The translations under genes and the position numbers were made by a program. This document shows, piece by piece, positions 1,917 through 5,702 of a stretch of 64,000 bases of DNA; the stretch's first letter is position 1; each line of letters starts with the position of its first letter. This stretch comes from an uncultured Gammaproteobacteria bacterium (GTDB lineage Bacteria; Pseudomonadota; Gammaproteobacteria; Pseudomonadales; Halieaceae), in contig CAWBXR010000011.1 of assembly GCA_963792815.1 (NCBI GenBank), positions 138,036-202,035 of the forward strand. The letters are read 5' to 3'. The notes under the pieces were generated by a model, which was not told the DNA's origin, made no database searches, and was given only the letters and a program-made list of their open reading frames with translations.

Positions 1917-2846
1917 TCAACGCGGCGGATATTCCCGCGCCAGCTGCACCTCCCTGGTCTCGCCAGCGCTGAATTCGCCGCTCTCCGGCCGGTAATCCCG
2001 CGCCTGGATCGCCAGCTGCCAGCCCTTGTCATTGCGCTGCACCGAGTAGCAGTTGTAGCTCGCCGGATTGCCGTGCTGCAGTCCCAGCGCCGAGGCGGAC
2101 GGCACGGCGATGACCGGCACGCTGCCGTGGGTGGTGTCCAGCTCGTCGTAATGGGCCCGGTGGCCGTGGCCGTTGAGTACCAGCTCGGCGCCGTGGCGGC
2201 TGATAATGGCCTGCACTTCCGCCGCATCCGTCAGCCGTTTGCGCCACTTCTCCCTGCCTGGCAGGGGCGAGTGGTGCAGGTAGACAACCCGGAACTGGCC
2301 CCTGGCGTGGGCGGCGTCAAGCAGTGCCGGCAGGCGGGCCAGTTGTTCGGGGCCCGCCGTCCCGGTAGCCATGAAAGGCGGTTTGGGACAGGCCGTGTTC
2401 AGGCCGATGAAGGCGATGTCCCCCCGGGTCCGCAGGCTGGGGTACAGTGCCGCAAGGCTGTCCTGGGGGCCGGCTGGTGCATCCGATGCCATGTAGTCCA
2501 GCCAGAGCGCGAAGGTGTCCCGCCAGGGGCTCGGTACTGAGGCGTCGTGGTTGCCCGCAATGACGGCCACGTGGTCGGGTGCGCCGAGGTTTTCCAGCCA
2601 CGTCAGGGCCTGGCGGAATTCCTGGGGCAGGCCCACGTGGGTCAGGTCGCCGGTGACCAGTACCTGGTCGAGCTCGAACTGGTCCAGGTCCTGCTGCAGG
2701 GCGGCCAGCACCTCCGGGCGGTGTTCAAAGCGCCGCCGCCGGCGCCACGACAGGTACCCCAGGGCGCGCTTGGACAGCAGCTCGCCGGGACGCACGCCTT
2801 CGAGCGAACTCAGGTGGGGGTCGGAAATCTGGGCAAAGTGCTGCAT
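1917..2846 (-). CDS. calcineurin-like metallophosphoesterase
   Basis: 309-aa ORF with the motifs ISDPHL (DxH), VTGDLTHVG (GD) and IAGNHD (GNHD). It starts 20 nt downstream of the murA-like stop on the same strand. Confidence 0.8.
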   Translation of the reverse strand: MQHFAQISDPHLSSLEGVRPGELLSKRALGYLSWRRRRRFEHRPEVLAALQQDLDQFELDQVLVTGDLTHVGLPQEFRQALTWLENLGAPDHVAVIAGNHDASVPSPWRDTFALWLDYMASDAPAGPQDSLAALYPSLRTRGDIAFIGLNTACPKPPFMATGTAGPEQLARLPALLDAAHARGQFRVVYLHHSPLPGREKWRKRLTDAAEVQAIISRHGAELVLNGHGHRAHYDELDTTHGSVPVIAVPSASALGLQHGNPASYNCYSVQRNDKGWQLAIQARDYRPESGEFSAGETREVQLAREYPPR

Positions 2847-2866
2847 GGGGCTCCTCCGGGCGGGAT

Positions 2867-4118
2867 TCAGACCCGCTGGATAATCGCCCCGAGGTCGGCC
2901 AGTTTCCTGTCGATATTGTCGTAGCCCCGGTCCAGGTGGTAGACCCGGTCGATGGTGGTGTCCCCGTCGGCGGCAAGCGCCGCGATGATCAGGGAGGCGG
3001 AGGCGCGCAGGTCGGTGGCCATTACCGGCGCACCCTGCAGTCGCTCGCGTCCGTGCACAATCGCCGTGTGGCCCTGCAACTCGATATCAGCGCCCATGCG
3101 CTGCAATTCGGCCACGTGCATGAAGCGGTTTTCGAAGATGTTCTCCACCACCGTGGCGGAACCCTCGGACAGTGCGTTCAGGGCCATGAACTGGGCCTGC
3201 ATGTCGGTGGGAAACGCCGGGAAAGGGGCCGTGTTTATGTGGACCGCCCGGCAGCGCTTGCCGCCCGTGTCCAGCTGGATCCAGTCGGGCCCCAGCTCGA
3301 TGCTGGCACCGGCCTGTTCCAGCTTGCCCAGCACGTGGTGGAGGAAGTCCGGGTTGGTGTCCAGCACCCGGATACTGCCGCGGGTGGCGGCAGCGGCCGT
3401 AAGGAAAGTGCCGGTCTCGATCCTGTCCGGTGGTACCCGGTGGCTGGCGCCGCGCAGGCTCTCCACCCCTTCTATGGTGATGGTGCTTGAACCGGCGCCC
3501 GTGATTCCGGCCCCCATGGCGGTCAGTAACCGCGCCAGGTCGCCCACTTCCGGCTCCAGCGCGCAGTTTTCCAGCACCGTGGTCCCCTGCGCCAGGCAGG
3601 CCGCCATCAACAGGTTTTCGGTGGCGGTTACGGAGGGAATATCGAAGGTGTAATGGGCGCCGCGCAGCCGCTTCGCCTTGGCCTTGATGTAGCCGGCCTC
3701 TATCAGGATCTCGGCGCCCAGCGCCTGCAGTCCCTTGATGTGCTCATTGACCGGGCGCGAGCCGATCGCACAGCCCGCCGGGCAGCGACACATCGGCTTC
3801 GCCGAAGCGGGCCAGCAGGGGCCCCAGCAGCAGGATGGCCCCGCGCATGGTCTTGACCAGTTCATAGGGGGCGTACACCGAATGCACCTTGCTGGTGTCG
3901 ATGCTCAGGTCGGTGCCGGAACGCTCCATGGTGCAGCCCAGCAGGGTCAGCAGTTTCAGCGCCGTGTCGATATCCCGCACCCCGGGGATATTGCTTATAT
4001 GCAGGGGCTCGGCGCTCAACAGGGAGGCTGCGATGATCGGCAGGGCCGCATTTTTTGCGCCCGCTACCCTCACTTCACCGTGCAATGGGCCATTGCCGGT
4101 GACGATAATTTTTTCCAT
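2867..4118 (-). pseudogene. murA: MurA-like UDP-GlcNAc 1-carboxyvinyltransferase, interrupted by a +1 frameshift
   Basis: Minus-strand ORFs 3744..4118 and 2867..3865 together match MurA end to end (MEKIIVTGNGPLHGEVRVAGAKNAALP ... FPTDMQAQF ... [11 protein letters not shown] ... YHLDRGY). The frame breaks at the C-run 3774..3776. The sequence reads SLPGG|LCDRLAPGQ*, whereas the shifted frame gives the expected GCAIGSRPV. Confidence 0.85.
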
Positions 4119-5320
4119 CAGGCGGCCCTGGCCGGCTCGAACAGGCCCGCCTCCTTGAGGCCTGCATAGGCGCTGATAATCCTGTCGATCTGCTCACTGC
4201 TGTGGGCCGCGCTGACACTGTTGCGCAGCAGGAAGTTGGTCGAGGGCGAGGCCGGCGGAATCACCAGGTTGACGTAGACCCCGGCCTCCATCAGCGCCTT
4301 CCAGCAGTCGATGGTGCGGGAGCGATCCACCATTTCCACTGCCACTACCGGGCTGGCGGTGGGGCCTACCGGCAGGTCCAGCGCTTTCAGCCCCTGGTAA
4401 AGCCGGTTGGCGTTATCCCAGACCCGCTGGCGACGCTCGGGCTCCGCGCGGATGATGCGCAGGGCCTCGCGGGTGGAGGCGATCACCGAGGGTGAAGATG
4501 ACGCGGTGAAAATATAGGCCTTGATGCAGAAGCGGATAGCTTCCAGTTCGCTGTGGGGGCTGACACAGAAGCCGCCGATGGAGCCAAGGCTCTTGCTGAA
4601 AGTGCCAACGGTGAAATCCACATCGGCCTCAACCCCAGCGGCCTGCGCGGCGCCGCGACCCGAGTCGCCCAGCACGCCCATGGAGTGAGCCTCGTCCACC
4701 AGCAGGTAGCCGCCGTATTCACGTTTGACCGCGGCGATTTCCTGCAGCGGAGCGACATCGCCCAGCATGGAGTAAATGCCTTCCGCGATGATCAGTGCCT
4801 GGCCCGCACGGTCCCCGAGGCGGCGCATCCGCTTGGCCAGGTCGTCCGGGTCGTTGTGCTTGTAGCGGATGATGTCGGCCTCGCTGAGCTTGACCCCGGA
4901 GTAGATGCTGGCGTGACTGTCCGCGTCCAGCAGTATGACGTCCCCCGGCCCCGCCAGGGTGGCGCACATTCCCATGGTCGCGGCGTAGCCGGTGGAGAAA
5001 ACGATGGCGTTGCTCACGCCGTAAAAGTCCGCTATTTCCCGCTCCAGTGCCTGGTGCTCCGCGAATGAGCCATTGGCCAGGCGCGAACCGGTAGTGCCGG
5101 TGCCCCATTTGGCTGCTGCCTGTTGGGAGGCGGCGATACAGCGCGGGTCGAATGACAGGCCCATGTAGTTGTTGGTACCGGCGAGGATGACCTTGTGGCC
5201 TTCTACCACCCCCTCGGTCGCGGACAGCAGTTGCTCGGTGACGGCACCGAAGGGGACCACTCCGCGTTCGGCGAGTTCGGCCTGAAAGTCGGCCATAGTC
5301 TGGAATTTGTCAAACAGCAT
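4118..5320 (-). CDS. PLP-dependent alpha-oxoamine synthase (Spt/BioF/Kbl family; serine-palmitoyltransferase-like)
   Basis: 400-aa ORF with GTNNYMGLS, LVDEAHSMGVLG and GTFSKSLGSIGGF (Schiff-base Lys context), all typical of the AOS family. Its stop overlaps the murA-like start (TGATG on the minus strand, 4116..4120). A small ACP gene lies directly upstream. Confidence 0.85.
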   Translation of the reverse strand: MLFDKFQTMADFQAELAERGVVPFGAVTEQLLSATEGVVEGHKVILAGTNNYMGLSFDPRCIAASQQAAAKWGTGTTGSRLANGSFAEHQALEREIADFYGVSNAIVFSTGYAATMGMCATLAGPGDVILLDADSHASIYSGVKLSEADIIRYKHNDPDDLAKRMRRLGDRAGQALIIAEGIYSMLGDVAPLQEIAAVKREYGGYLLVDEAHSMGVLGDSGRGAAQAAGVEADVDFTVGTFSKSLGSIGGFCVSPHSELEAIRFCIKAYIFTASSSPSVIASTREALRIIRAEPERRQRVWDNANRLYQGLKALDLPVGPTASPVVAVEMVDRSRTIDCWKALMEAGVYVNLVIPPASPSTNFLLRNSVSAAHSSEQIDRIISAYAGLKEAGLFEPARAA

Positions 5321-5459
5321 GGGGAATCCCTGTTGTACTGATGAAATCTGGCCGGTAAGCCTAGTCTACAAACGTCGCAATCTCAGTGCCGGATTACCCG
5401 TGTGAGATGGTACTTTTACGCACTGGAAATCCCGCGAAGCGGATACCGGTACCCTGATT

Positions 5460-5702
5460 TCAGGGGTTGAGTTCCTGGACCTTTACCGCCAGTTCACCGA
5501 TGGTGTTTACGTCGGGCAGGATGTTGAGGGGAATCGAGATGTCGAAGTGATCCTCGATCTTCTCGATGAATTCCATGACCTCCAGGGAACTGAGACCGAT
5601 ATCGGCCACCAGGTGGGTTGATTCCGTCAGTTCAATATTCTTCTTATTTTGTGTTGCGAGAGCGCTGTACAGGAAACCCAGGTATTCTTGGTAATCGGTC
5701 AT
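5460..5702 (-). CDS. acyl carrier protein
   Basis: 80-aa acidic ORF with a DIGLSSLEVMEF phosphopantetheine-attachment Ser motif. It is the first gene of the minus-strand operon. Confidence 0.8.
   Translation of the reverse strand: MTDYQEYLGFLYSALATQNKKNIELTESTHLVADIGLSSLEVMEFIEKIEDHFDISIPLNILPDVNTIGELAVKVQELNP

Follow-up and report, generated by a model that had tools for sequence, protein, structure and literature searches.

Why should the gene for a cell wall enzyme be joined, through overlapping stop and start codons, to the gene that commits a cell to sphingolipid synthesis? The question is raised by a stretch of 64,000 nucleotides (nt) from an uncultured member of the Halieaceae (contig CAWBXR010000011.1 of GenBank assembly GCA_963792815.1, positions 138,036 to 202,035; hereafter the window), in which four genes, all read from the minus strand (1917..5702), code for, in order, an acyl carrier protein (ACP), an alpha-oxoamine synthase (AOS; spt), the enolpyruvyl transferase MurA, and a metallophosphoesterase. 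The open reading frames (ORFs) and our reading of the sequence agree with an earlier description of this locus, made from the letters of the DNA and here called the original prediction, on the placement and common direction of these genes, on the TGATG shared by the synthase stop and the murA start, and on the 20-nt spacer that follows murA; the same description overlooked a 1-nt frameshift within murA. The answer that we favor, and hold to be rather probable, is that a working-type UDP-N-acetylglucosamine (UDP-GlcNAc) enolpyruvyl transferase is co-expressed with the committed enzyme of sphingolipid synthesis, coordinating the layers of the envelope. Such a tie between the cell wall and the outer membrane lipids is more likely than the new lipid decoration that had been proposed.

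The identity of the enolpyruvyl transferase is central to this answer. Its scores and alignments were computed on the 416-amino-acid (aa) product obtained after removal of one G from the window gene. This repaired protein scores 569 bits against TIGR01072 (equivalog cutoff, 392.7 bits) and 587 bits against NF006873 (cutoff, 297 bits), and it is 57 to 63% identical to MurA sequences with solved structures (60% to Pseudomonas aeruginosa MurA, 63% to PDB 6wfm, and 57% to Escherichia coli MurA). Conserved in the alignment are K22, N23, R91, C115, R120, S162, V163, D231, R232, D305, R331, D369, L370, R371, and R397; among these, the catalytic Cys115, the phosphoenolpyruvate (PEP)-binding K22, R120, and R397, the base D305, and the UDP-GlcNAc contacts N23, R91, S162, V163, D369, L370, and R371 are all identical to those of the E. 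coli, P. aeruginosa, and 6wfm enzymes. NikO and AroA share the PF00275 fold family with the window protein, but the latter is not a divergent member of the kind that these represent: NikO (PDB 4fqd), which uses another acceptor, matches it with 122 bits against 490 to 550 bits for true MurAs, and the aroA model with 74.6 bits against 490 to 590 bits for MurA. By every sequence test, the protein is MurA, predicted to act as a UDP-GlcNAc enolpyruvyl transferase, and its sequence lends no support to enolpyruvyl transfer to a long-chain base, ceramide, or other lipid. The PEP-derived lipid decoration by a MurA homolog that the original prediction envisaged finds no support in this equivalog-level assignment and the retention of the UDP-GlcNAc contacts checked.

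Whether the synthase falls with serine palmitoyltransferase (Spt) or with BioF and Kbl was checked with profile models. It reaches 591.8 bits against NF047599 (cutoff, 500 bits), and the bioF (333 bits; cutoff, 426), kbl (286 bits; cutoff, 460), ALAS, and CqsA models fall below their cutoffs. On this profile evidence it is a serine palmitoyltransferase and neither BioF nor Kbl; its translation contains the pyridoxal phosphate-lysine motif GTFSKSLG, and it is 52 to 58% identical to Spt of Caulobacter loci. A genome scan with Spt gave best matches of 92% in the Haliea/Halioglobus group, and an exact-sequence look-up of the window Spt found no identical record. The ACP ORF carries the ACP-type serine motif DIGLSSLEV, with NCBIfam ACP models matching below their cutoffs, and the gene lies directly 5' of spt in all Halieaceae loci and in those of the Thiogranum type described below. 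The phosphoesterase (Pfam PF00149, 43.7 bits) displays the DxH, GD, GNHD, and GHxH motifs; in tblastn comparisons it is 37 to 43% identical to a product encoded some 3 kb 3' of spt in loci of Caulobacter and Phenylobacterium, where CC_1158 lies (PMC11324152), and in Halieaceae without murA its gene stands directly 3' of spt.

The junction between spt and murA is conserved: some 35 loci, belonging to two groups of gammaproteobacteria, have murA after spt. The order in the Halieaceae loci fetched with Spt is ACP, spt, murA where present, and phosphoesterase, flanked by an ELM1-family gene on one side and an NTP-transferase gene and a bCerS gene on the other, all three on the opposite strand. Here murA lies between spt and the phosphoesterase gene in L001 to L004, L007 to L012, L018, and L031, and is absent, with the phosphoesterase gene directly after spt, from L005, L006, L013, L014 (Haliea sp. 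E17), L015 (Porticoccus), L019, L020, and L023. In all, 14 Spt-fetched loci have murA after spt, and in 13 of these, the phylogenetically separate L016 among them, the two genes overlap by 1 nt, an overlap kept despite a varying stop codon (TGATG, TAATG, or TAGTG); one sublineage has an 88-nt spacer instead. The spacer between murA and the phosphoesterase gene ranges from 3 to 162 nt among relatives. In a neighbor-joining (NJ) tree of eight concatenated neighboring proteins, with murA-negative loci as outgroups, the murA-positive Halieaceae are monophyletic (93% bootstrap), which argues for a single insertion of murA and no later loss within the sample of about 27 Halieaceae loci. Repeated loss of murA, as read from a single-gene Spt tree with L005 and L006, was dropped as an explanation, the eight-protein tree placing L006 and L014 outside the murA-positive clade. 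The matches listed in the search with the window MurA are all at least 83% identical to it, and every contig that was read for matches of 83 to 96% identity is spt linked (P0006, P0116, P0074, P0068, P0117, and P0126); NCBI places one of the spt-linked proteins in Halioglobus japonicus. The close relatives, with identities reaching 96%, all have an unbroken length of 416 aa; in the closest relative, L081, MurA and Spt are 96% and 98% identical, respectively, to those of the window.

As a background for this arrangement, we drew 80 murA loci from metagenomes by a peptide pattern. Two of these are spt linked, and both are close relatives of the window (82 to 83% MurA identity). Among the remaining 78 loci (57 to 64% identity), 68 show the canonical context of mla/bolA upstream and/or hisG downstream, eight have another context, two lack upstream data, and none is spt linked, which indicates that the linkage to spt is specific and not a chance neighborhood; the scan met no MurA sequence between 64% and 82% identity. 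The contention that the window murA stands outside the housekeeping context is borne out by these numbers, as is the view that, given the overlap in 13 of 14 loci, its adjacency to spt is meaningful. The canonical arrangement, mlaFEDCB-bolA(ibaG)-(grx)-murA-hisGDC, resembles the window in that murA, of the same MurA equivalog family, is the last gene of an operon for outer membrane lipid homeostasis in both. It differs in that the partner there is bolA/ibaG, whereas here it is spt with a stop/start overlap, and hisG does not follow. No mla, bolA, or hisG gene was found among the scanned ORFs of the window, where spt lies upstream and the phosphoesterase gene downstream of murA instead.

The second spt-murA group comprises L016, L017, Thiogranum longum P0148, P0144, P0222 (on a 3.14-Mb contig), and P0237, with the order LptF-LptG-ABC-ELM1 (opposite strand)-ACP-spt-murA, followed by glyoxalase and argG genes on the opposite strand. 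A query with the L016 MurA revealed this clade, and canonical-context MurA appeared only at the 74% edge of the matches listed. The MurA at that edge, from Candidatus Muproteobacteria (74% identical to that of L016), lies in an mlaFEDCB-bolA-grx-murA-hisGDCB context. MurAs of the Thiogranum type are 68 to 74% identical to the canonical-context MurA P0261, and that of L016 is 69% identical to P. aeruginosa MurA; these identities are as close as those of canonical orthologs to one another. In Thiogranum-like loci (L016, L017, L094 to L097, L099, and L100), spt-murA occupies a stable chromosomal site beside glyoxalase, argG, and 2-oxoacid dehydrogenase genes, and the remaining ceramide genes are not adjacent to it. 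A mosaic spt 3' end, which would be expected if the spt 3' end and murA had been imported together from a Thiogranum-like donor, was found in none of the murA-positive Halieaceae.

On the basis of these observations, the four genes would form the core operon of a Halieaceae outer membrane sphingolipid island, in which the ACP and Spt would make the long-chain base, the phosphoesterase would be the counterpart of CC_1158, which acts late in head-group synthesis, and MurA would carry out its ordinary reaction between PEP and UDP-GlcNAc rather than a lipid reaction. A single insertion at the root of one Halieaceae subclade placed murA between spt and the phosphoesterase gene, and the Thiogranum-like gammaproteobacteria have a related spt-murA junction. 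With the start codon of murA overlapping the stop codon of spt, MurA synthesis would keep pace with that of Spt, and the committed enzyme of peptidoglycan synthesis would therefore be co-expressed with that of an outer membrane lipid. We infer a coordinating role for the linkage, and its conserved coupling suggests selection for co-expression of these two committed enzymes. The idea resembles, by analogy, both the canonical mla-bolA-murA operon and the link between MurA and LpxC in P. aeruginosa, where MurA activates LpxC by protein-protein contact and so coordinates peptidoglycan and outer membrane synthesis (Hummels et al. 2023, PMC9995270). In each case the committed peptidoglycan enzyme would be tied to the committed enzyme of an outer membrane lipid pathway; the P. 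aeruginosa link is protein-protein activation, whereas that to Spt is genetic (operonic and translational) and known here from the genes alone. G58 and E406 of the P. aeruginosa enzyme are implicated in LpxC binding (PMC9995270). The Halieaceae spt-linked MurAs vary at the first position (T, G, S, A, Q, or E) and have D at the second, whereas those of the Thiogranum type retain both residues.

Several points weigh against this account. Co-transcription of the four genes and translational coupling of spt to murA are both deduced from sequence, and scans for promoters and terminators around the operon gave no clear signal: two promoter-type matches were seen in the region against 0.8 expected, and the weak one upstream of the ACP gene is not significant by itself. 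Rfam and tRNA scans returned nothing bearing on the operon. In an NJ tree of MurA, the spt-linked sequences all fall into a single clade (91% bootstrap), with the canonical-context and Pseudomonas sequences outside, and the stem of the Halieaceae proteins is long and carries 21 clade-specific changes at outgroup-conserved sites, including the positions of G58 and E406; going by the sequences, such a pattern would likewise be compatible with a second copy gained by horizontal transfer. Further, the window murA is frameshifted; were the frameshift real and murA single copy, the cell would be inviable, and therefore either the base is erroneous or another murA exists.

These points lead to an alternative that we regard as possible, if on the unlikely side, namely, that the sphingolipid module carries along a second murA dedicated to the pathway, the spt-linked gene, and that this copy supplies UDP-GlcNAc-enolpyruvate, or a close analog, from which a carboxylated sugar of a glycosphingolipid head group is made, with a canonical murA elsewhere serving peptidoglycan. 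One murA copy is usual in proteobacteria; Gram-positive bacteria, with the duplicates MurAA and MurAB, provide an example of one genome with two copies that are both catalytically competent. The single spt-linked clade and the loss of the P. aeruginosa-type LpxC-contact residues on the long Halieaceae stem agree with such a copy, as do a frameshift tolerated in the window and an island rich in genes suited to a complex head group (glycosyltransferase-like ELM1 and GT2, Wzy_C-like, and sulfotransferase genes). Against it, the substrate pocket is unchanged, the island holds neither murB nor another partner gene, the Thiogranum-type copies evolve like ordinary orthologs, and the gene has not been lost from any sampled Halieaceae locus since its insertion. 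Nor did three homolog searches, with the matches listed ending at 74 to 83% identity, contain a second, canonical Halieaceae MurA or any other murA cluster from the same megabase contigs; an artificial "pre-stem" consensus MurA used as a query returned the same Halieaceae clade.

The frameshift itself admits another reading, in which the spt-linked murA of this genome has truly, though only very recently, become a pseudogene and a functional copy lies outside the window. The extra base yields two ORFs, 3744..4118 (124 aa) and 2867..3865 (332 aa), so that the window lacks the uninterrupted murA frame of about 416 aa that the intact genes of relatives have. Pairwise alignments with L081, L082, L084, L001, and L018 each place one extra G in the window gene where the relatives read GGCGGC; in the comparisons with L081, L082, and L084 there is no other indel. 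A programmed frameshift was ruled out, since the relatives all lack the extra base. That a single base was inserted immediately before the Cys115 codon, and that the other 11 genes compared with L081 are collinear and free of frame breaks, with no obvious abundance of indels in the assembly, speaks for a genuine lesion. However, murA is under strong purifying selection (dN/dS against L081, 0.021/0.353 = 0.06), amino acid changes number five on the window branch and six on that of L081, with no relaxation, the gene is intact in all relatives, and the insertion extends a short G run, as is typical of consensus errors. Related metagenome assemblies also contain split genes (ELM1, epimerase, spt, ABC, and argG), namely, L081 at 7297..8341 and 16479..17314, L012 and L031 in spt, and L100; indel errors are thus common in such data, and this bears on the window murA, with the same kind of break occurring in L081 itself. 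Given no sign of decay, the extra base would be either an error of assembly, which is the more probable, or a mutation of very recent date, and we hold a true pseudogene to be quite improbable.

A more far-reaching form of the co-expression account would make MurA a functional sphingolipid partner, produced one-for-one with Spt and binding or regulating Spt or the exporter, so as to balance peptidoglycan against sphingolipid as MurA does for lipopolysaccharide via LpxC, with spt-murA as a mobile "envelope-coordination" cassette spread between gammaproteobacterial lineages. We offer this as a speculation of rather low probability.

By Pfam and NCBIfam matches, the operon is embedded in an envelope-lipid island that extends from 79 to about 28.8 kb (28815) of the window (Table 1). 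Its GNAT and NTP-transferase products are 97% identical to those of 380-aa and 272-aa genes of L081, the pair is syntenic with the Caulobacter cerS-CC_1153 pair, and tblastn maps the window NTP-transferase to the CC_1153 position in Caulobacter loci. Besides the features in the table, the island codes for a 2-oxoglutarate-iron oxygenase, a GT2 glycosyltransferase, a Wzy_C-like protein, and a flavin adenine dinucleotide (FAD) oxidoreductase. Just past the left edge of the window, L081 has genes for an acyl-ACP synthetase, a CerR-like reductase, two LpxL-like acyltransferases, and a fatty acid hydroxylase, and AMP-binding and epimerase-type genes follow in L081 to L084. The ceramide-gene company of spt thus consists of the ACP and bCerS-like genes in the window and these AMP-binding and epimerase-type genes in the relatives.

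The closest described system is the Caulobacter crescentus cluster CC_1152-CC_1168, with spt, acpR, cerR, aasR, cerS, the CpgB kinase, the Tam41-like CC_1161, the phosphoesterase CC_1158, the CofC-like CC_1153, and LptC2/F2/G2 (PMC11324152, PMC9393093, PMC12275187); its ceramide phosphoglycerate enzymes are the PgsA-like CpgA, the kinase CpgB, the Tam41-like CpgC, the cytidylyltransferase CpgD, and CC_1158 (PMC11324152, PMC9393093). The window shares with it spt, a dedicated ACP, a bCerS-type GNAT, CC_1153-like and CC_1158-like genes, a diacylglycerol kinase (DAGK)-type kinase, a second LptF/LptG pair, and a candidate Tam41-like gene with a match below the cutoff. It differs in having murA, and the Caulobacter phosphoesterase gene lies four genes after spt. 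No CpgA-type CDP-alcohol phosphatidyltransferase/PgsA domain was seen in the ORFs scanned from 79 to 28815, five of which have no Pfam match, and the window adds the three ELM1-family genes, four sulfotransferases, the MsbA-like exporter, the GT2 gene, and the Wzy_C-like gene. These differences in gene content suggest that the head group is probably different, and going by the predicted genes, it may be a sulfated glyco- or phosphosphingolipid undescribed for the Halieaceae. The echo of Caulobacter ceramide phosphoglycerate synthesis in the original prediction therefore holds for the locus as a counterpart cluster, by virtue of the shared genes, but not for a comparable MurA-type enzyme. All CC_1152-1168 genes are assigned to non-MurA functions, the terms murA, enolpyruvyl, and carboxyvinyl are absent from PMC11324152 and PMC9393093 (murA and carboxyvinyl also from the supplements of the former), and the alphaproteobacterial spt loci that we fetched contain no MurA match. 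The idea that MurA attaches the enolpyruvyl group of PEP to a long-chain base or ceramide hydroxyl, forming an anionic lipid comparable to ceramide phosphoglycerate, could appeal to the tight, conserved coupling to spt and to the anionic sphingolipids known in Caulobacter (PMC9393093), but the lack of such an enzyme in that pathway, the equivalog-level match with every checked UDP-GlcNAc contact kept, the distance from NikO, and the fact that murA is missing in sister Halieaceae and in every alphaproteobacterial sphingolipid locus where the other pathway genes are retained make it very improbable.

The authors who described CC_1153 likened it to CofC. Enzymes of the CofC type may activate PEP or 2-phospholactate; if so, any PEP-derived chemistry in this pathway would be likelier at the NTP-transferase than at MurA.

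Table 1. Positions of the operon, its junctions, and other features in the window (+ and -, strand)
Feature	Position	Strand	Remarks
acpR-type ACP gene	5460..5702	-	80 aa; first gene of unit
spt (serine palmitoyltransferase, committed sphingolipid-synthesis enzyme)	4118..5320	-	400 aa
murA (UDP-N-acetylglucosamine 1-carboxyvinyltransferase)	2867..4118	-	Split by 1-nt insertion here
Calcineurin-type metallophosphoesterase gene	1917..2846	-	309 aa; CC_1158 counterpart
spt/murA stop/start overlap TGATG	4116..4120	-	Plus strand CATCA; TGA and ATG have one base in common
murA-phosphoesterase spacer ATCCCGCCCGGAGGAGCCCC	2847..2866	-	20 nt; contains GGAGGAG ribosome-binding site
Extra base in murA	3774..3776	-	Plus CCC, coding GGG; one additional G in GGCGGGC immediately 5' of Cys115 codon
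Sigma-70-like promoter match, weak	5757..5786	-	CTGGCA-18-TATAGT, 5' of ACP gene
bCerS-like GNAT acyltransferase	79..1008	+	Pfam; 5' end truncated by window edge; convergent to operon
CC_1153-like (MobA-like) NTP-transferase	1019..1837	+	Pfam; convergent to operon
ELM1-family gene	5768..6844	+	Pfam/NCBIfam; collinear with L081
MsbA-like ABC exporter	6837..8582	-	Pfam/NCBIfam; collinear with L081
LptG-like	8654..9724	-	Pfam/NCBIfam; collinear with L081; second LptF/LptG pair
LptF-like	9721..10788	-	Pfam/NCBIfam; collinear with L081; second LptF/LptG pair
ELM1-family genes, three	5768, 11847, 17141
Sulfotransferases, four	10922, 13835, 14743, 24270
Tam41-like gene (CpgC-like), weak	20206..21348		PF09139, 19.5 bits, under 24-bit cutoff
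DAGK-type kinase (CpgB-like)	21141..22106		PF00781, 46.7 bits; putative ceramide kinase
Dedicated phosphopantetheinyl transferase	26784..27518
tRNA-Arg (anticodon CCG)	54596..54672	-	Only RNA family match in window

Beyond the island, the region 29614..51279 codes for a carbamoyltransferase, a DUF3604 protein, a WS/DGAT wax-ester synthase, a DnaJ-like protein, an AraC regulator, a cyclic nucleotide-binding GGDEF protein, a 1029-aa cyclase-AAA-TPR protein, a beta-eliminating lyase, a ricin-lectin protein, and a TamB/TamA pair (47133..51279).

Our literature search found no paper on an spt-murA linkage and none pairing the Halieaceae with sphingolipids; the link is apparently undescribed, within a variant of a known bacterial sphingolipid cluster. 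Bacterial sphingolipids are emerging as outer membrane lipids that can partly replace lipopolysaccharide, and in two groups of gammaproteobacteria the spt-murA junction stands in place of the nearly universal mla-bolA-murA order. Marine Halieaceae are likely producers of a complex, possibly sulfated, undescribed sphingolipid. A relocated housekeeping murA would make the finding a modest point of gene order; a dedicated second copy, or a murA whose product regulates Spt as its partner, would amount to new biology. With carriers that can be named, Thiogranum longum and, through one protein assigned to it by NCBI, Halioglobus japonicus, the junction offers a concrete and genetically tractable handle on the balance between wall and membrane growth in cells that make sphingolipids.

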